24,507 bases of DNA from Minisyncoccota bacterium. GTDB taxonomy: Bacteria; Patescibacteriota; Minisyncoccia; Phycocordibacterales; SBAW01. The first letter of the stretch is position 1, and each line of letters begins with the position of its first letter. Of this stretch, positions 2,795-11,936 are shown piece by piece. Location: assembly GCA_036509865.1 (NCBI GenBank), contig DATCEW010000084.1, positions 1 to 24,507 of the forward strand, written 5' to 3'. The position numbers were made by a program, and so were the translations under genes. The notes under the pieces were generated by a model, which was given only the letters and a program-made list of their open reading frames with translations, had not been told where the DNA came from and ran no database searches.

Positions 2795-3442
2795 TTATTT
2801 TTTGAGGCTCGTAATCCCTTTTTGGGTAAAAATCTCATCCACAAGGCCGTACTTTTTAGCCTCTTCGGCGCTCATAAAATAGTCGCGCTCAACATCCTTC
2901 TCTATCTTTTTAAGATCTTGGCCGGTTGCCTTGGCAAGGATCTTGTTGAGCCTGTCGCGGGTGGCGATAATGTGCTTGGCGGTTATCTCAATGTCGGTGG
3001 CCTGCCCTTGCGCGCCGCCCCACGGCTGATGGATCATCACCTCGGCGTTGGGCAGTGCAAAGCGCTTGCCCTTTTGGCCTGCGGCTAAAATAATGGCCGC
3101 CGCCGATGCCGCAATGCCCACGCACACGGTGGCAACGTCGGGCTTGATGTGGTTCATGGTGTCGAGCATGGCAAGGCCGGCGGTCACCGAGCCGCCGGGG
3201 GAGTTTATATACAGCTGGATATCTTTTTTAGGATCCTCGCTCTCCAAAAAGAGCAGCTGGGCGATAATCAAGTTGGCGGTTTGGTCCTCGATAGGGCCGG
3301 TAAGGAAAATAATGCGCTCTTTAAGGAGGCGTGAGTAAATATCAAAAGCGCGCTCACCAAAAGGCGACTTTTCGATAACCATGGGCACGAGTTGGTCTTG
3401 AAATCCTCCGTTTGATTGATTTTTAGGGTTGTTATTCTGCAT
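2795..3442 (-). CDS. clpP: ATP-dependent Clp protease proteolytic subunit
   Basis: [29 protein letters not shown] (catalytic Ser), MIHQP (His), ERDYFM (Asp). Start moved to ATG 3442 because TGtTATGAT lies 6 nt upstream and the longer ORF overlaps the next gene. Confidence 0.97.
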
Positions 3443-3480
3443 GTGTGCATCATAACAGATTTTTACATTCAGTAAATATA

Positions 3481-4299
3481 TTATTTCTTTTGAATAGTTT
3501 CTAAAATACGCTGATGATCCTGCTCTGCTGAACCCCACAGATAGTCAAAAACCATCTCAAATGTTTTTCGGATCGCAGGATTTTCGATTATGGTAGTGAT
3601 AATTGCATCCTCGTAAGCCGTGATGGCAACTTTGTTTGCATAAATAATAATCTGGGCGGGGACGGCAAGTTTTTCTCTCGGCACAATACGTCGCGTGACC
3701 AGCCTCTCACTATCGAATGCGATGATTTCCACCGGCGTTCCTTCCGCCAATGCTGTAATAGCCTGCGTTTGTATACCGAGTTTTTTCTGCTCCTCTATTT
3801 GTTTCTGTACCATACCGGCAAGTTGGGGGTGGCGATTATCCTCTGGCGACCGTATAAGCTTTATAGGTTGGCGTTCATTGAGAATATCCTCATACAGCTC
3901 TCCCACACCGGCGATCCCTTCGAGAATCCTTAAGCCCGGCGCTCCAGACTTGGTATTAAAATCGGAGATCAGCTTACCTAACACTCCTTCAACGGCATTT
4001 TTTGCGTCTTTTGCTTTCTCATACCGTTTATCTACCAGTTCTTTGAATTTAAACGGGTGTGCCGCCGTAAAGGTTGCAACATTGCCGGGGAGATCTTCTT
4101 TTTCAATAAGCCCCAGAACCTCGAGCTCCTGAAGCGCCTTATAGCCGAGTGTGCGAGGAACGTTGGCAAGCCTCGCGGCATGGCTAGCTGGCAGCTTTCC
4201 ATTCCTGACGATTGTCTCATATAGCTTAGCCTGATTGATATTTAGGCCGCCTTCTACAAGAGTCTGGTAATAAATAGGTTGGTTTTTTGTTTCATCCAT
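3481..4299 (-). CDS. TrmB-family transcriptional regulator (N-terminal wHTH plus C-terminal effector-like domain)
   Basis: [10 protein letters not shown]...A..A.VPRT..Y..L..L...GLIE is a TrmB-type HTH, and the C-terminal [10 protein letters not shown]...IIENP.I...F..VF..LW is typical of the family. Start at 4299 preferred over 4308 because TATAAT abuts 4308. Confidence 0.8.
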
Positions 4300-4308
4300 A
4301 ATAGCCAT

Positions 4309-4336
4309 ATTATATAGGCACGTTTAGTTTTGTCAA
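4309..4336 (-). promoter_or_regulatory. Consensus sigma70 promoter of the TrmB-like gene
   Basis: Minus strand TTGACA (4336-4331), N16, TATAAT (4314-4309); ATG 4299 lies 9 nt downstream. Confidence 0.8.
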
Positions 4337-4417
4337 ACAACATTTACAGAAATACGTAGCAAAATAGCCATAAAATGCCTTATTTTAAGTAGTATTTGTC
4401 AAACTATGTTTTGTATG

Positions 4418-4445
4418 TTGACATTATATTTTATTGGCGTATACT
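4418..4445 (+). promoter_or_regulatory. Near-consensus sigma70 promoter driving the accessory island
   Basis: TTGACA (4418-4423), N16, TATACT (4440-4445); predicted TSS about 4451-4452. Confidence 0.8.
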
Positions 4446-4451
4446 TTTGTC

Positions 4452-4901
4452 ATATCCTTATTGCGAGTACCGGAGGGATGCCGGAAAAGAGGAAAGAGGA
4501 TGGTCTCTGACAACAGAATAGGTGATAAGGAAAAACGCAGAACAATCTGTGCTTCGGCGCAAACTGCATCGAGTTGGGTTAATAACAGTAACCCCGAGAA
4601 TGTGCGTCTCCTATGAATTCGAGCTCGGCTCGCATAGGAAGACAGACGCACCCTCAAAAACCGAGTAGAACCTCGGCCTGTAACCCTCATCGCAATGGTG
4701 AGGTGCGGAATGGAGCTCCGCGGGTGTGCGCAGCCCAAAGTTGCTGGTGGCGAGATGTGGCGTACGCGTCGCATCACAAAAGCCAAACCAGAACAGCTCC
4801 GTGTTTTCTCCCCGACCAGCTCTCTGCGATGCAGATTGAGCGGTCGGGGATTCTATTCAACTCGCGAACAAGCTTGCGACTGTGCAAGAATTCGTGAGTT
4901 G
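4452..4901 (+). ncRNA. Large structured RNA / 5' leader of unknown family
   Basis: About ten stems found by eye, e.g. 4455-4464/4522-4531, UUCG hairpin 4548-4561, 4602-4651, 4744-4791, 4809-4850, 4858-4901. G-U wobbles are consistently on the + strand. No convincing CDS. Confidence 0.6.
4856..4901 (+). repeat. Island hairpin element, copy A
   Basis: TTCAACTCGCGAA...TTCGTGAGTTG, 11-bp stem 4858-4868/4891-4901, followed by AAGGAG at 4910-4915. Confidence 0.8.
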
Positions 4902-4921
4902 TTCGAATCAAGGAGATGGTC

Positions 4922-5287
4922 ATGGAAAAAATCCTCAACCTGACGCAACACGCCGCCACTGCCGAGCAAATCGCGGCCGGTGTCGTCGAACCTGCTGACA
5001 AGATTGTGGTGCAAGCGCTTCTCACGTTTGAGGAGTTGCCCACCGCAGGCGAAATCAAAAGACGCGCGAGGTCGCTCTCCGAGTTTGCAGCTACGAGCGG
5101 CTGCAAGACCGCGATGATCGGCGGTGCACCGTTCTTTATGGGGCCACTTGAATATGCGCTTGCGACGGCGGGGATAAAAGCCCTCTATGCGTTCAGCAGA
5201 CGCGAAACCGTCGAGGAAAAACTCCCCGATGGTGGTGTGAAGAAGACGCAAGTCTTCCGCCATGCCGGGTTCGTGTCGACCTTTTAA
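4922..5287 (+). CDS. Small Csx20/CARF-like protein, putative cyclic-oligoadenylate ring nuclease or binder
   Basis: ILNLTQH.AT.EQ, AMIGGAPF, and C-terminal G...LYAFSRRE.VEE..PDG.VKK..VFRH.GF, which resembles the Csx20 pattern as recalled (VY.TT.R.S.E...DG...K.S.FKH..F). SD AAGGAG; start 4922 (alternative 4916). Confidence 0.5.
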   Translation: MEKILNLTQHAATAEQIAAGVVEPADKIVVQALLTFEELPTAGEIKRRARSLSEFAATSGCKTAMIGGAPFFMGPLEYALATAGIKALYAFSRRETVEEKLPDGGVKKTQVFRHAGFVSTF

Positions 5288-5301
5288 AACGACACATGGT
5301 T

Positions 5302-5330
5302 AGGGCGAGCCAAAAATCGCCCTCTTTCTT
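5302..5330 (+). terminator. Terminator-like hairpin after the Csx20-like ORF
   Basis: AGGGCGA (5302-5308)/TCGCCCT (5317-5323) followed by the interrupted tract CTTTCTT. Confidence 0.45.
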
Positions 5331-5354
5331 CAACTCGCAAATGGTTGTGAGTTG
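5329..5354 (+). repeat. Island hairpin element, copy B (minimal)
   Basis: TTCAACTCGCAA-ATGG-TTGTGAGTTG, 10-bp stem 5331-5340/5345-5354, then GGAG at 5366-5369. Confidence 0.8.
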
Positions 5355-5375
5355 ATTGAGATTTTGGAGATGCCC

Positions 5376-5573
5376 ATGATGAATAGGCCCGCAACTGCGC
5401 TGGAGCAACTCCGGCAGCGGCAAGGAACGCAAACTCTAAAACGGCTCATCTACAGATGCGTCGGCCGAGAAGAGATCGCGCTTGCCGCGCGACGCTACCG
5501 GAGGTATCTTCCCAAGCTCGATTTCAGTCGAGACGATTGGAAAGATCAGATCCAAAACTTGCCCGATTCATAA
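5376..5573 (+). CDS. Small basic hypothetical protein (65 aa)
   Basis: GGAG 6 nt upstream of ATG 5376; flanked by elements B and C; no recognisable motif. Confidence 0.6.
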   Translation: MMNRPATALEQLRQRQGTQTLKRLIYRCVGREEIALAARRYRRYLPKLDFSRDDWKDQIQNLPDS

Positions 5574-5585
5574 TCGGGCCTCTTA

Positions 5586-5633
5586 TTCAGCACATGATGC
5601 ATATTGGCGAATTGGTCGCCACACCGTGTGCTG
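5586..5633 (+). repeat. Island hairpin element, copy C
   Basis: TTCAGCACATG...CGTGTGCTG, 9-bp stem 5588-5596/5625-5633, inner TGGCGA/TCGCCA stem, then AGGAG at 5636-5640. Confidence 0.75.
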
Positions 5634-5648
5634 CTAGGAGTTCTTACC

Positions 5649-6089
5649 ATGGAACACGAACGCCTTGCAGGAAAACCCTTCGTGCTCATTGAAACAAATG
5701 AGGAAGGGGCCCTACGCGTCATTGATATCGGCGCACACATCGCCGAGAAGTACGGCGACAAAACGCTTGGTGCTCTCTATGAGTTCGCATCGCGCCGCCG
5801 GATCGCTTTTGCGAAAGCGAAAAAAGCGATCATCAAACGCCTCGGCCGTAAGCCTGTCATGGGCTCGGACGAGTGGGCAAGCTCGGAAGAACACCGGGTG
5901 TTGCAAGAGGTTCCTGCTCTCGGCCTTAGTGGCACGCACATAAAGCGGGCCGGCCCTTTGGACATGAAATTGTCCGAATGGGTCAAGGGGTGGCATGGCG
6001 GTTGCCTCGGCAAGTATGACCGCGAGGTCATCAAGGCTCTCGTCGCAACAACGGGTGACGAGACGGCCGCGCTTTTATTGTCGAGTTAG
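5649..6089 (+). CDS. Hypothetical protein (146 aa)
   Basis: AGGAG 8 nt upstream of ATG 5649 (MEHERLAGK...). The ORF-track start at 5604 falls inside hairpin C. Confidence 0.7.
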   Translation: MEHERLAGKPFVLIETNEEGALRVIDIGAHIAEKYGDKTLGALYEFASRRRIAFAKAKKAIIKRLGRKPVMGSDEWASSEEHRVLQEVPALGLSGTHIKRAGPLDMKLSEWVKGWHGGCLGKYDREVIKALVATTGDETAALLLSS

Positions 6090-6099
6090 TCTCGGCATT

Positions 6100-6135
6100 G
6101 GCGAACGCATGTAGTTTACTTCTACCGCGTTCGCC
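6100..6135 (+). terminator. Strong hairpin after the 146-aa ORF (no U tract)
   Basis: Perfect 9-bp GGCGAACGC (6100-6108)/GCGTTCGCC (6127-6135) with inner GTAG/CTAC. Confidence 0.4.
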
Positions 6136-6141
6136 CCCTCA

Positions 6142-6187
6142 TTCAGCACATCGTCCACGCTGCGATCGTCGCAAGCTGGTGTGTTGA
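6142..6187 (+). repeat. Island hairpin element, copy D
   Basis: TTCAGCACATC...GGTGTGTTGA, 10-bp stem 6143-6152/6178-6187, then AGGAG at 6189-6193. Confidence 0.75.
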
Positions 6188-6201
6188 TAGGAGAAGACCA
6201 A

Positions 6202-6390
6202 ATGACCGAACTCGAGATTATCTGCGAGATCACCAAGATCATTCGGATCCGTGATTCTCGGGTGTCTCTTGTGGATGGAATTGCGCGTGCAAAGCGCGTG
6301 ATCGAGTCCCCTGAGGAGCTCGGGCTCCTCTGCAAAGAGACGTTCGAGTTTATTCGCGAGATCGAACGCAGAAACCGCACCGGGCGGTAA
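6202..6390 (+). CDS. Small hypothetical protein (62 aa)
   Basis: AGGAG 8 nt upstream of ATG 6202 (MTELEIICEITK...). Confidence 0.6.
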   Translation: MTELEIICEITKIIRIRDSRVSLVDGIARAKRVIESPEELGLLCKETFEFIREIERRNRTGR

Positions 6391-6535
6391 ACTCGGGACA
6401 TTCTTTTGCGGTCCAAACGCAAGAGAGACGCCAATTCTTTTTGGCTTGAGCGGGGATCCGAAAGGGCGAGACCGCAAAAAAGATGGGACAATCTCTGCCC
6501 ATACCAAGTGAGATGTTGTTCTTTAGGAGGATGCA

Positions 6536-6688
6536 ATGAAAATCACTCTGCAAACCGTGCGGCCCATCAATGTGGCCGCCAAGGCTCTCGCACAGGGGCA
6601 GTTTCGCCCGCAAATTGTGCGAGACAAGAAAAAGTATTCCCGCAAGGGACGCCAATCCTCGATGCGAAAATTCGAGGACTCTATTTAG
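6536..6688 (+). CDS. ArfA-like (alternative ribosome-rescue factor-like) basic peptide, 50 aa; not in the ORF track
   Basis: AGGAGG 5 nt upstream. MKITLQTVRPINVAAKALAQGQFRPQIVRDKKKYSRKGRQSSMRKFEDSI resembles the ArfA core N....L....FR..V...KK...Y.RK but lacks the full KGKGS motif. Confidence 0.55.
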   Translation: MKITLQTVRPINVAAKALAQGQFRPQIVRDKKKYSRKGRQSSMRKFEDSI

Positions 6689-6729
6689 CTCGCGAGCATG
6701 CTTGCAACAATGCAAGAGTTCGTTAGTTG
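6684..6729 (+). repeat. Island hairpin element, copy E (41/50 nt identical to copy A, ungapped)
   Basis: TTTAGCTCGCGAG...TTCGTTAGTTG, stem 6686-6696/6719-6729; overlaps the TAG stop of the ArfA-like ORF. Confidence 0.8.
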
Positions 6730-6735
6730 ATTGAG

Positions 6736-7122
6736 TCAACCAACCAATTTTGAGTTTTTTTCAAGCCACGCGGCTATATCTGCGATAGAAGTTTTTTCCA
6801 CCACAAAATGCACCATCGAATCCTCAATATCTTTTTGGTCAAAAAAGGTTTTATACTCATTTTGCTCGAGTATATACACCGCTGTTATAAACGCCGTACG
6901 TTTATTGGCGTCTACAAACACATGATTGCGCGCGAGGCTCTCGAGCGTTGCGGCTGCTTTAGTAAATAAGTTTGGGTACATCTCGGTGCCTCCAAACCCT
7001 GCATACGGTCGTGCGGTGCACATCTCTAAAGCACCGGCGTCACGCAAGCCGCTTGATCCGCCCGTTTGGCGCAACACCACCTCATGCAGGCGGATAATAT
7101 CCTCAGCAGTAGGGAAGGTCAT
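6736..7122 (-). CDS. doc: Doc/Fic-family type II toxin (death-on-curing)
   Basis: Doc motif NHVFVDANKRTA, N-terminal H....GG..G.RD.G.LE...ARP; 128 aa. Confidence 0.92.
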   Translation of the reverse strand: MTFPTAEDIIRLHEVVLRQTGGSSGLRDAGALEMCTARPYAGFGGTEMYPNLFTKAAATLESLARNHVFVDANKRTAFITAVYILEQNEYKTFFDQKDIEDSMVHFVVEKTSIADIAAWLEKNSKLVG

Positions 7123-7364
7123 TATTTGTCTTTGAGCGCCTCAAGTGCAGGGCGGTAACGCTCGACAGCCTCCTCGGCCCACGCCACGAGCTTTGCATTG
7201 CCGGCACTCTTTTTAGCGGCAGGGGCCTTTTTTTCAACAATAAAACGCCCAGCCTCTCTTGTTACAGAGATTATGTCACCCGCAAAAAAACCTTCCTCAC
7301 GTGCATCTTTTGCAGGGAGTACCACGCTTATAGAGCTGCCTACTTTGAGTATTTTTTGATCCAT
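7122..7364 (-). CDS. AbrB/MazE-fold antitoxin cognate to Doc
   Basis: KILKVGSSISVVLP...EEGF..GD.ISV AbrB pattern, C-terminal ERYRPALEALKD; TAATG stop/start overlap with doc. Confidence 0.88.
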   Translation of the reverse strand: MDQKILKVGSSISVVLPAKDAREEGFFAGDIISVTREAGRFIVEKKAPAAKKSAGNAKLVAWAEEAVERYRPALEALKDK

Positions 7365-8827: not shown

Positions 8828-9907
8828 TTATTTTACCTCTCCCTCGAGCATTTTTAGCACCAGCTCGTTTCTTAGCACCGTTTCGATATGTATTTTAAGT
8901 AACTCAAGGTTTGCGTCAGGGAAATGCTCTATCGCATGCTTCATTTCCGCATCAACTGCGGTCGAGTCGGCCTCTACTTTCTCATCGGCAGCTAATTTAT
9001 TTAATACCAACTGAAGCTTGGCGCGCTTTGCGCCTTGCTCATAAAAGTCTTGGCGTACGGCCTCCTCGGTTTTACCCACGCGTTTTAAATAATCCTCATA
9101 GCTCATGCCAAAGCGAGCGACATCCTCACGCATTTGGCTCATTATTTTATCGAGCTCGCTCTCGACAAAAATCTTTGGCACCGCCACTTGGGTTTTCTCG
9201 AGTAGCTGCTCAATTATTTTGCCGCGGCGAGCGTCTTTGGCGGCACGCTCCTTTTCCTCCCCGATGCCTTTTTTGATTTGAGTTTTAAGCTCCTCAACAG
9301 TAGTAAAAGCGCCGAGTGATTTTGCAAACTCATCGTTTAGCTCAGGCAATACCGGTTCGGTTGCTTCAGGTGTATCCTCTCCTTCGATGGCGGGTGCAAC
9401 CGGAGGGACTGCACGGCTTTTGCGCAAGTCCTCGATAGTTTTATCTACCTCTTCGTCAGTTGCCGGCTCGGCAGCTTCAAGCGGGATATTTTTTGCAACA
9501 TCTTTCCACTCCTTAGGTACGTTTACGATAGGGTACACCGCCGTGCGCACGGTAAGCCCGACCGACTCTCCCGGTGCAAGCTTGGTAATGCGGATATCAG
9601 GGCGGCCGACTGCATCTATTTTGTGAGCGGTAATAAGCTGCGGGTAAAAGTCGCGCACCAACAGCTCGACAGACTCCTCGAGCATGGCTATCTCCCCAAC
9701 CTTTTTTAAAGCAATGTCGCCGGGCACGTGCCCTTTGCGGAAGCCGGGCAGATCAAGCTCCCCTGCAATGTGCCCCAGGGCCTCATCTTTGTAGTTGTTT
9801 ATAGCATCGGCAGGTATCTCGCCGGTAAACTCAACCTCCGACTCGGGGAGCTCTTTAAACGTAAAAGATTTTGCTACTTCCTCCCAGTGGGTATCTGTTT
9901 TTGTCAT
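8828..9907 (-). CDS. tig: Trigger factor lacking the FKBP/PPIase domain
   Basis: Ribosome-binding LPGFRKGHVP signature; a short acidic/Pro linker then ELNDEFAKSLG and the C-terminal chaperone domain; 359 aa. Confidence 0.92.
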   Translation of the reverse strand: MTKTDTHWEEVAKSFTFKELPESEVEFTGEIPADAINNYKDEALGHIAGELDLPGFRKGHVPGDIALKKVGEIAMLEESVELLVRDFYPQLITAHKIDAVGRPDIRITKLAPGESVGLTVRTAVYPIVNVPKEWKDVAKNIPLEAAEPATDEEVDKTIEDLRKSRAVPPVAPAIEGEDTPEATEPVLPELNDEFAKSLGAFTTVEELKTQIKKGIGEEKERAAKDARRGKIIEQLLEKTQVAVPKIFVESELDKIMSQMREDVARFGMSYEDYLKRVGKTEEAVRQDFYEQGAKRAKLQLVLNKLAADEKVEADSTAVDAEMKHAIEHFPDANLELLKIHIETVLRNELVLKMLEGEVK

Positions 9908-10715: not shown

Positions 10716-11936
10716 TTAAGCAATTTCCGACTTTACCTCGCCGTCTTCCGTTACCTCGGCTACCTTAGTGCCGCCGATAGACTGGATGTCGATGCGCCAG
10801 CCGGTAAGCTTGGCGGCAAGACGCACGTTTTGGCCGCCGCGGCCGATGGCGAGGCTCTGCTGGTCCTCGGCAACTTTAATGCTTGCCTTGTGCTCGGCCT
10901 CATCGAGCTCAACCGAGGTGATGCGGGCCGGGGAGAGCGCCTCCTCTATAAATGATTTAATATCCTCGTTCCACTCGATGATGTCTATCTTCTCACCGCC
11001 GAGCTCGGAGGTAACGGTGGAGACGCGCACGCCGCGCTGGCCCACCAAGCTGCCGACCGGGTCGACATGCGGGTCGCTTGAGGCAACCGCAACCTTGGAG
11101 CGGCTGCCCGCCTCGCGGGCGATTGCTTTAAAGGTAACAATGCCGTGCCCGACCTCGGGCACCTCCATCTCAAAAAGTTTTGCAAGAAACTGCGGGTTGG
11201 CGCGCGAGAGGCGCAAGTAAATGCCGCGCGGGCTCTCCTCTACCTGATATAGCAAGCCGCGGATGCGCTCGCCCTGGCGGTACCGCTCGCCCGGTATCTG
11301 CTCGTCGTACGGCAAGATGCCCGTTGCGCGGCCGAGGTCGACATAGATATTGCCGCGCTCCATGCGCTGCACAGTGCCGCTCACTATCTCGCCCTGGCGT
11401 TTGCCAAACTCGGCCACCACCGAAACCTTTTCCGCTTCGCGGATTTTTTGGATGATCACTTGTTTGGCGGTTTGTGCGGCGATGCGGCCGTAGTCGTCCT
11501 TCATCTCAAGAGGGAAGATGAGCTCGTCGCCCACCTTTGCATCGCGCTTGATAAACTTAGCGTCGGAGAGGAGGATATGCTGCTCGGGGTTAAAGCGCGG
11601 CAGCTCTCCCTCGGCAAGCGTTGGAGCCTCCTCTTTGTGATAGCGCCCGTCGTTATACGCGTAGCCCTCTTTTGTCCCATGAGAAGCTTCGGCTTCTTCT
11701 CCTTCCTCGACAAAACGCACGGAGCTCTCGTCGACCACCTCTTTAATTTGTTGAAACTCGGTGGTGCCGCTCGCCAAGTCGAGATGCGCGCGGATAATCT
11801 GCCCGCGCTTTGCGTACTCTTTTTTGTAAGCGGTTGCGAGCGCGGCCTCGATAGCCTCGATGACTTTCTCGCGCGGTATGCCGCGCTCTTCCTCAAGCTC
11901 GCCGAGCACGCTGTTCATTACTTTTAGGTCAAACAT
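10716..11936 (-). CDS. nusa: Transcription termination/antitermination factor NusA
   Basis: GRIAAQTAKQVIIQKIREAE, S1 domain, AREAGSRSKVAV, GQRGVRV..V..EL.GEKIDI, LAIGRGGQNVRLAAKLTGWRIDI. Confidence 0.97.
   Translation of the reverse strand: MFDLKVMNSVLGELEEERGIPREKVIEAIEAALATAYKKEYAKRGQIIRAHLDLASGTTEFQQIKEVVDESSVRFVEEGEEAEASHGTKEGYAYNDGRYHKEEAPTLAEGELPRFNPEQHILLSDAKFIKRDAKVGDELIFPLEMKDDYGRIAAQTAKQVIIQKIREAEKVSVVAEFGKRQGEIVSGTVQRMERGNIYVDLGRATGILPYDEQIPGERYRQGERIRGLLYQVEESPRGIYLRLSRANPQFLAKLFEMEVPEVGHGIVTFKAIAREAGSRSKVAVASSDPHVDPVGSLVGQRGVRVSTVTSELGGEKIDIIEWNEDIKSFIEEALSPARITSVELDEAEHKASIKVAEDQQSLAIGRGGQNVRLAAKLTGWRIDIQSIGGTKVAEVTEDGEVKSEIA

Follow-up and report, generated by a model that had tools for sequence, protein, structure and literature searches.

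A strongly folded leader RNA of an uncatalogued family in Kaiserbacteria-like bacteria, with a conserved core best read as an rRNA-type boxA antitermination signal

Here, we report that positions 4453-4921 of a 24,507-nucleotide stretch of DNA from a Minisyncoccota bacterium (the whole stretch being called the window below) are a real, strongly folded and new leader RNA of an uncatalogued family. We propose that the conserved core of this RNA is best read as an rRNA-type boxA antitermination signal heading an accessory gene array, which would be a known type of mechanism in an unusual translational setting. In its specific form, which we regard as somewhat probable, the proposal is that 4453-4921 is a Nus-factor (boxA) antitermination leader, by which the polymerase is carried through the hairpins of the leader and through the terminator-like ones that separate the genes of the island.

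The window is one contig of a 0.56-Mb (562-kb) genome that is 85% complete (G000 below), and one DNA run, from a peat metagenome, contains the stretch. The leader lies in an insert flanked by clpP (2795-3538) and by tig, which encodes the trigger factor (8828-9907), both on the minus strand. This insert holds, in order, a TrmB-like gene, a divergent promoter pair, the leader, a plus-strand array of small genes reaching to ~6687, a Phd/Doc-type pair and two further ORFs (Table 1). A Fic/Doc toxin gene and a MazE/Phd-type antitoxin gene (6736-7364, minus strand) converge on the end of the array. The near-consensus promoter of the original prediction (4418-4445) is borne out, with 11 of 12 consensus positions matched, and its position would place the start of the leader transcript near 4452-4453. 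This promoter layout is repeated in the homologues G017/L030 and in the metagenome locus L100, and a scan of the plus strand from 4446 to 7000 called no promoter. The TrmB-like gene has a promoter of its own at 4309-4336, a perfect 12/12 match, and the direct repeats in the divergent promoter region are candidate operator sites. The leader promoter is probably gated by the divergent TrmB-like protein, a pairing of regulator and leader that is also found in G017, G033, L071, L060 and L078.

Table 1. Features of the leader RNA and its surroundings, with positions in the window.
Feature	Position	Strand	Details
TrmB-like winged-helix regulator gene	3481-4308	-	Pfam PF01978; divergent from leader
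Direct repeats TTTGTCAAAC (candidate operators)	4329-4345 and 4395-4411		Divergent promoter region; overlap -35 box of TrmB-like gene
Sigma-70-type leader promoter	4418-4445	+	TTGACA 4418-4423, 16-nt spacer, TATACT 4440-4445; 11/12 consensus
Whole untranslated leader RNA	4453-4921	+	~470 nt; fold z -6.5; no Rfam match; no conserved ORF
5' hairpin domain, boxB-like position, ahead of boxA	4454-4501	+	CCGG/CCGG hairpin 4470-4484; purine-rich AAAGAGG repeat
boxA-like element UCUCUGACAACAGAAUAG	4504-4521	+	Invariant unpaired block of the family
Family helices P2a and P2b	4537-4567	+	P2a 4537-4540/4564-4567; P2b = UUCG hairpin 4548-4561
Lineage-specific stable hairpin stack	4569-4797	+	4569-4599; 4602-4651; 4661-4676; 4685-4703; 4705-4721; 4722-4736; 4743-4797
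First copy of intercistronic module	4810-4915	+	GC-rich hairpin 4810-4849; U-rich tail 4850-4861; hairpin 4858-4901; GGAG motif 4910-4915
First cargo gene	4922-5287	+	122 aa from ATG at 4922; no Pfam match

The original prediction, made from the letters of the sequence, saw here about 460 nt with no convincing coding sequence and about ten stems, and took them for an unrecognised large ncRNA or regulatory leader. RNAfold reproduces essentially every stem that it listed (4455-4464/4522-4531 through 4858-4901), and the comparison with dinucleotide shuffles that it had put forward as a check comes out clearly: the whole region folds at -185 kcal/mol against -147.6 +/- 5.8 kcal/mol in shuffles (z -6.5), with 0 of 100 shuffles as good. 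The reverse strand likewise reaches a z of -6.5, yet its fold is 11.6 kcal/mol weaker. By sub-region, z is -4.3 for 4573-4808, -1.5 (not significant) for the conserved 5' 120 nt (4453-4572), and -0.2 for a coding control at 4950-5185. The absence of a coding sequence also holds, as the internal ORFs of 4453-4921 have no Pfam match and tblastx of 4573-4921 against ~140 related loci gave nothing below E 0.1; a conserved protein ORF spanning the leader was rejected. Nor did the RNA, for which the original prediction saw no match to tmRNA, RNase P, SRP, T-box or c-di-GMP motifs, find a family in Rfam, either for the window leader (at gathering threshold or at E <= 10) or when ~36 related loci were searched as well at gathering and permissive thresholds. 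As to the housekeeping RNAs (RNase P, tmRNA, SRP and 6S), the window has no Rfam match to them, the RNase P RNA lies elsewhere in the genome, and the RNA described here, unlike an essential RNA with one copy in each genome, occurs in only 34 of 80 genomes of the genus. Thus, the first interpretation is supported, in that the region is structured, non-coding, absent from Rfam, and situated between a strong promoter and the first island gene.

A search for homologues, also put forward as a check in the original prediction, led to an RNA family. By blastn, relatives matched the 5' part of the leader alone, and a covariance model (R1) was built from four short homologues. It matches 34 of 80 genomes of the genus, nearly always in single copy (two copies in one genome), with 9 weaker matches in the remaining genomes of a sample of the order (151 searched in total). 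A fuller model (R2) aligned 38 sequences, and in this alignment 96.9% of cells are standard pairs, against 79.2% in column shuffles and 38-52% with slid partners, figures that lean towards structure because the alignment was fitted to the model, although the gap to the controls is large. Compensatory changes are found at 20 of its 30 pairs (157 cells in all), and the supported helices are P2a, the P2b hairpin, and one long hairpin with the near-invariant strands UGUUGUUCCUC and GAGGGAUCGCA. Two other candidate helices, P1 (GACAAC/GUUGUU) and P1' (GGAAnAAC/GUUGUUCC), were dropped, as neither has covariation beyond conservation. Several near-invariant G-U pairs indicate that the RNA strand is that of the downstream ORFs. 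This covariation-supported family includes the 5' third of the leader in the window.

Of 30 family loci, 20 have the RNA between tpiA and a gene for a pilB-type ATPase, and three have it behind a malic-enzyme gene; in the window and in G007, its neighbours are clpP and tig. The pilB-tpiA junction of the window genome (13539-13585) is empty, with the genes 47 nt apart, and the same junction holds a leader and a variable small-gene array in 20 relatives, which suggests that the array here was gained, lost or relocated. Every member runs into a same-strand ORF preceded by GGAG. Since the 5' third of the window RNA belongs to a family that always precedes such an ORF, the term "leader" fits it better than "free-standing ncRNA". 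The proteins encoded behind the members are unrelated (31-180 aa, about half with a hydrophobic segment), which fits an operon-level transcription signal and not a gene-specific riboswitch. In two genomes, a second copy of the leader core was seen 1-5 kb downstream of the first and on the same strand (L034:2449-2596; G079 contig C12, 512-659 and 5537-5684).

The window leader is a divergent, expanded member of this uncatalogued family of Kaiserbacteria-like (CPR) bacteria. R2 gives it 57 bits (E 3e-12) for 4499-4598, a stretch that covers the 5' block and P2a/P2b, and the alignment stops at 4598, so that the long hairpin of UGUUGUUCCUC and GAGGGAUCGCA is lacking. The hairpin at 4602-4651 occupies the same place with another sequence, which is what marks the window as divergent, and it is possibly a diverged analogue of the long (P3) hairpin of the family. 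The promoter and first 120 nt are ~81-85% identical to G017 and closely similar in L100, and both of these keep the canonical core; the 5' hairpin domain itself is ~85% identical in the two, and is predicted in two alternative pairing registers (4454-4459/4495-4501 or 4455-4464/4522-4531). The members paired with a TrmB-like gene have longer leaders, reaching ~700 nt in L071, L060 and G033/L065. In L071, L060 and L065, a further conserved domain was observed on the 5' side, ~400 nt ahead of the R2 core (CCCCCAYYCUCUAG ... GAAAGAGGAGAGRGUGGGGAUGAGAG; no Rfam match).

Support for the pairing differs along the leader. P2a and P2b have compensatory changes at 9 of 9 pairs (38 sequences), and G017 shares the three hairpins of 4685-4736, where it shows compensatory changes, which is two-genome support, while for the stems at 4576-4594, 4602-4651, 4661-4676 and 4744-4791 it is purely thermodynamic. 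Across the 80 genus genomes, blastn found no homologues of the 3' two-thirds of the leader, and a pattern for the 4685-4703 hairpin matched exactly in the window and G017 alone. Further afield, an 18-mer scan of metagenomes gave one true homologue, L100 (with its duplicate L101), the other 11 matches being due to chance. The last stem of the leader, 4858-4901, is not specific to it, being one of five copies of an intercistronic hairpin. It belongs to a module whose U-rich tail ends in UUCAAC and is followed by the second hairpin and then the GGAG motif; further copies lie at ~5302-5370, 5561-5645, 6100-6200 and 6648-6739, and the module stands ahead of every gene of the array. The first hairpins of two copies score as terminator-like, and L048 has the same CCCCGACC..GGUCGGGG module arrangement.

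The case for boxA concerns the most conserved block of the family (consensus GnUCUyUGACAA..AUAG), which shows no covariation and is thus probably single-stranded. The 16S rRNA leader of the same genome (contig C62) carries GUUCGUUGACAACUGAAUACG after a hairpin, and the 16S leaders of G024 and G001 carry UGUUUUUUGACAAC, also after a hairpin. A strict pattern derived from the family has three sites in the genome and, when the downstream AUA(G/C) is included, only two, namely the 16S leader and the island leader. Likewise, a profile HMM made from the block in 36 members, all from other genomes and none from the window, ranks the island leader (E 8.5e-4) and the 16S leader (E 0.025) ahead of the next match (E 1.6) in the 562-kb genome; this profile does not detect the intercistronic tails (CUCUAUUCAAC type). 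The exact 15-nt pattern YTGACAACNGAATAS has 24 matches in the 80 genomes and 0 in a reversed control: 4 in 16S leaders, 4 in the leader-RNA family, and 16 heading other leaders with no rRNA within 1.5 kb. In 14 of the latter, the first ORF comes only after several hundred non-coding bases beyond the motif, and R2 gives the 16 sites only 12-20 bits, which means that the block is shared and the rest of the family is not. When compared directly, the island and rrn blocks agree at 23 of 34 positions and blastn-short did not link them; with so low a pairwise likeness, the boxA case rests on the profile and pattern statistics.

Among the other boxA-headed leaders, a second class was observed (L120, L121, L124, L126, L130, L131, L133-L135, L138, L141), with conserved CUACCAA and GGGUAGAA blocks. 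Where ORFs can be called in this class (L126, L130, L134, L135, L138), they start 590-740 nt downstream, and they look like surface proteins with an N-terminal repeat of peptidoglycan-binding type.

The block can also be compared with known elements. The boxA-like consensus of B. subtilis, AUGAUCUUUGAAA, directly follows a small hairpin and binds NusB, and the boxA consensus of E. coli is UGCUCUUUAACA (PMC13753749). The window sequence AUGGUCUCUGACA agrees with the B. subtilis consensus at 10 of 13 positions (PMC13753749). Its placement is similar, with the promoter ending at 4445, the transcript probably starting shortly after it, and a predicted hairpin domain at 4454-4501 preceding boxA at 4504-4521. 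As for the protein factors, a search for two of the Nus proteins found NusB on contig C50 (100 bits) and NusA at 10716-11936 of the window. None of the 80 genus genomes gave a match to the RNA-binding domain of Rho.

In light of the leader carrying a boxA-like element, how might it work? The element, copied from the leader of the rRNA operon, would be the key working part. Once transcribed, it would be bound by NusB-S10 and, together with NusA and NusG, the boxA complex would turn RNA polymerase termination-resistant. The resistant polymerase could then pass ~400 nt of very stable leader hairpins and, after them, the terminator-like hairpins between the downstream genes. The recruitment of Nus factors by boxA elements in the leaders of mRNAs, outside rRNA, is established (PMC5725501). 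In addition, by displacing NusA from the RNA exit channel, the rrn complex hampers intrinsic termination (PMC13753749), which in a lineage without Rho is its only relevant activity. The boxA reading explains why the block is unpaired, why rRNA and other long leaders have it as well, and the arbitrary nature of the genes that follow.

Several points weigh against the boxA reading. Because Rho was not found in the 80 genomes, the classical anti-Rho role cannot apply, and the target could only be intrinsic termination, pausing or RNA folding. A boxA in an mRNA leader can also repress instead of antiterminate, as in suhB (PMC5725501). The reading accounts for ~20 nt and does not cover the retention of ~450 nt of structured RNA (P2, the long hairpin and the hairpins specific to the window), and the canonical long hairpin of the family is missing from the window. 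Finally, the block contains TTGACA, a -35 hexamer, so that a role at the level of DNA is conceivable, yet there is no -10 box at a workable spacing; a promoter within the block was rejected because, on reading the sequences, no -10 box stands 16-18 nt behind the hexamer.

The alternatives have to be judged against an unusual translation background. The 3' end of the 16S rRNA (...GCUCGUGGAAUAAUUCAAAUG) has no CCUCC anti-Shine-Dalgarno sequence in three genomes of the genus (L114, which is G000 contig C62 2916-2970, L115 and L116); the 16S ends of G000, G024 and G033 read GGAAU(A/G)AUUCAA, and AUG continues this in G000 and G024. No SD precedes the core genes in the window (TrmB-like, phd, ppa, pilB, recJ, tig and others), and in many of them a TATAAT-like box stands 6-10 nt ahead of the ATG, which points to leaderless mRNAs. 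Each of the island genes (at 4922, 5376, 5650, 6203 and 6537) has a GGAG at 6-9 nt from its ATG, on the upstream side. With a 16S rRNA that has no CCUCC, this "SD" of the island cannot work in the textbook way, and models that rely on hiding it are doubtful.

One such model is a riboswitch-like cis-regulator, responsive to a ligand, a protein or temperature, which would hide the GGAG and start codon of the first gene and thereby control translation. In its favour, 4912-4925 is predicted to pair with 4799-4811 (probability ~0.75), RNAalifold on four short members pairs a 5' UCUCU with the GGAG motif, the GGAGG lies inside a local hairpin in L100, and strand (b) of the long hairpin can, by reading of the sequences, pair alternatively with a downstream strand. 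Against this, the GGAG is unpaired at a mean probability of 0.42 in 27 members, unchanged by forcing or blocking the long hairpin (p 0.39), and covariation does not support the alternative helices P1 and P1'. A switch that sequesters the SD was accordingly rejected, the pairing of GGAG with 5' UCUCU being inconsistent and independent of the long hairpin. The downstream genes are unrelated across members, unlike those of riboswitch regulons, there is no Rfam riboswitch match, and "SD sequestration" itself may be meaningless where the 16S rRNA has no CCUCC tail. We therefore consider a riboswitch unlikely. To a free-standing, trans-acting ncRNA of ~400 nt, ending at the 4810-4849 hairpin and a U-rich tail, with the genes behind it transcribed by leakage only, we likewise give little credence. 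Such an RNA would start from a strong promoter of its own and end in a long GC-rich hairpin with AUUCUAUUC behind it (4850-4858), and its structure is large and ornate, with GNRA-capped peripheral hairpins in relatives and related loci of ~700 nt. However, the U-tract is poor, the scan did not call the 4810-4849 hairpin a terminator and called no plus-strand promoter for the genes in 4446-7000, all members of the family run directly into an ORF, and boxA at the head of the RNA argues for read-through.

A comparably low probability attaches to an RNA-processing cassette, in which the polycistronic RNA would be cut shortly before every AUG, at the leader and the hairpin modules, either by self-cleavage or by RNase III or RNase Y, to yield leaderless mRNAs for ribosomes without an anti-SD. 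The core genes without SD and with a -10 box close to the ATG, the 16S rRNA without CCUCC, and a hairpin module before every island gene all agree with it, as does the island of G033, in which a complete type III hammerhead lies on the strand of the leader and ~2.2 kb downstream. This hammerhead (L065:3-95, minus; 41 bits, E 6.5e-7) has a 42-nt insertion in stem II and keeps CUGAUGAG, CGAAAC and GUC intact. In the window, by contrast, no ribozyme family of Rfam matches, and the core of the family is unlike any known ribozyme class, with no cleavage site demonstrable. Still, taken together, the anti-SD-less 16S rRNA, the core genes without SD and the hammerhead make a model of cutting beside each AUG conceivable. 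The least probable of the alternatives, and one that we think very improbable, is an element acting as DNA, either an integron-like recombination site with attI/attC-like hairpins or a decayed, functionless remnant. Gene content is variable behind a conserved sequence, the module occurs at different chromosomal sites (pilB-tpiA, clpP-tig, after the malic-enzyme gene), and the hairpin bases UUCAAC...GUUGA faintly recall the R''/R' core sites of attC. Yet the near-invariant G-U pairs of the transcribed strand would be C-A mismatches on the other strand, GTTGATT and GTTGTTC deviate from GTTRRRY, copies are single per genome, and there is no integrase or recombinase among the window genes scanned against Pfam. 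Two further candidates were tried and set aside: a CsrA sponge or target with GGA-rich loops, as no CsrA gene scored above cut-off in the 80 genomes, and an rrn-like leader-trailer helix around the cargo, as the best duplexes were no better than with a shuffled query.

The boxA reading might also be extended. As a speculative and rather unlikely possibility, the accessory arrays could borrow the whole logic of rRNA maturation, with the boxA leader loading an rrn-type antitermination and chaperone complex, the hairpin modules (hammerheads in some islands) cutting beside each AUG to give leaderless mRNAs, and the structured leader serving as the platform for both loading and processing.

If true, the boxA reading would be the first indication found of boxA/Nus-type antitermination outside rRNA operons in bacteria of the candidate phyla radiation, and it would tie the variable small-gene arrays of ultra-small genomes, as a class, to the machinery of rRNA transcription. 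The covariation-supported family, 150-700 nt long and missing from Rfam, is new. It also raises the question of how the internal genes of a polycistronic RNA are expressed without Rho and without an anti-SD, amid leaderless mRNAs.

How does this leader compare with known systems? The closest is the antiterminator of the rRNA operon leader (boxB, boxA and boxC, with NusB-S10, NusA, NusG and SuhB). There as here, a hairpin and then a boxA-type sequence come soon after a strong promoter, and a long, untranslated and highly structured RNA lies behind boxA; the motif is that of the genome's own 16S leader, with a likeness extending over ~34 nt (23 identical). The differences are that the leader described here heads accessory genes coding for proteins, that no leader-trailer helix brackets its cargo, that no boxC was identified in it, and that the searched genomes of the genus yielded no Rho, which is the classical target.

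A boxA at CRISPR arrays was reportedly described by Stringer et al. in 2020. The boxA leaders outside rRNA (suhB and ParE-like toxin mRNAs, PMC5725501; CRISPR arrays, PMC13753749; the nut sites of lambda) resemble the present one in that boxA heads a non-ribosomal unit, including mobile or accessory ones, and uses the Nus factors of the host. Those leaders are proteobacterial, and their boxA either lies near the start codon and represses or precedes a CRISPR array, whereas here boxA lies within 150-700 nt of conserved, structured RNA in CPR bacteria and no N-like protein is apparent.

The put sites of HK022 and the EAR element of the B. subtilis eps operon are processive-antitermination RNAs that act on the polymerase through their own fold. 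They are alike in being structured RNAs that open a long operon, and the leader here would similarly make the polymerase ignore downstream terminators; they differ in that Nus factors are what the conserved, unpaired boxA here suggests, and the RNAs resemble each other neither in sequence nor in structure. Lastly, ROOL, GOLLD, HEARO and OLE (Rfam) are similar in size (470 nt here, ~700 nt in relatives), in their modular insertions and GNRA-capped peripheral hairpins, and in their accessory or mobile setting; no Rfam model matches the present RNA, however, and unlike them it is always the 5' leader of an ORF.
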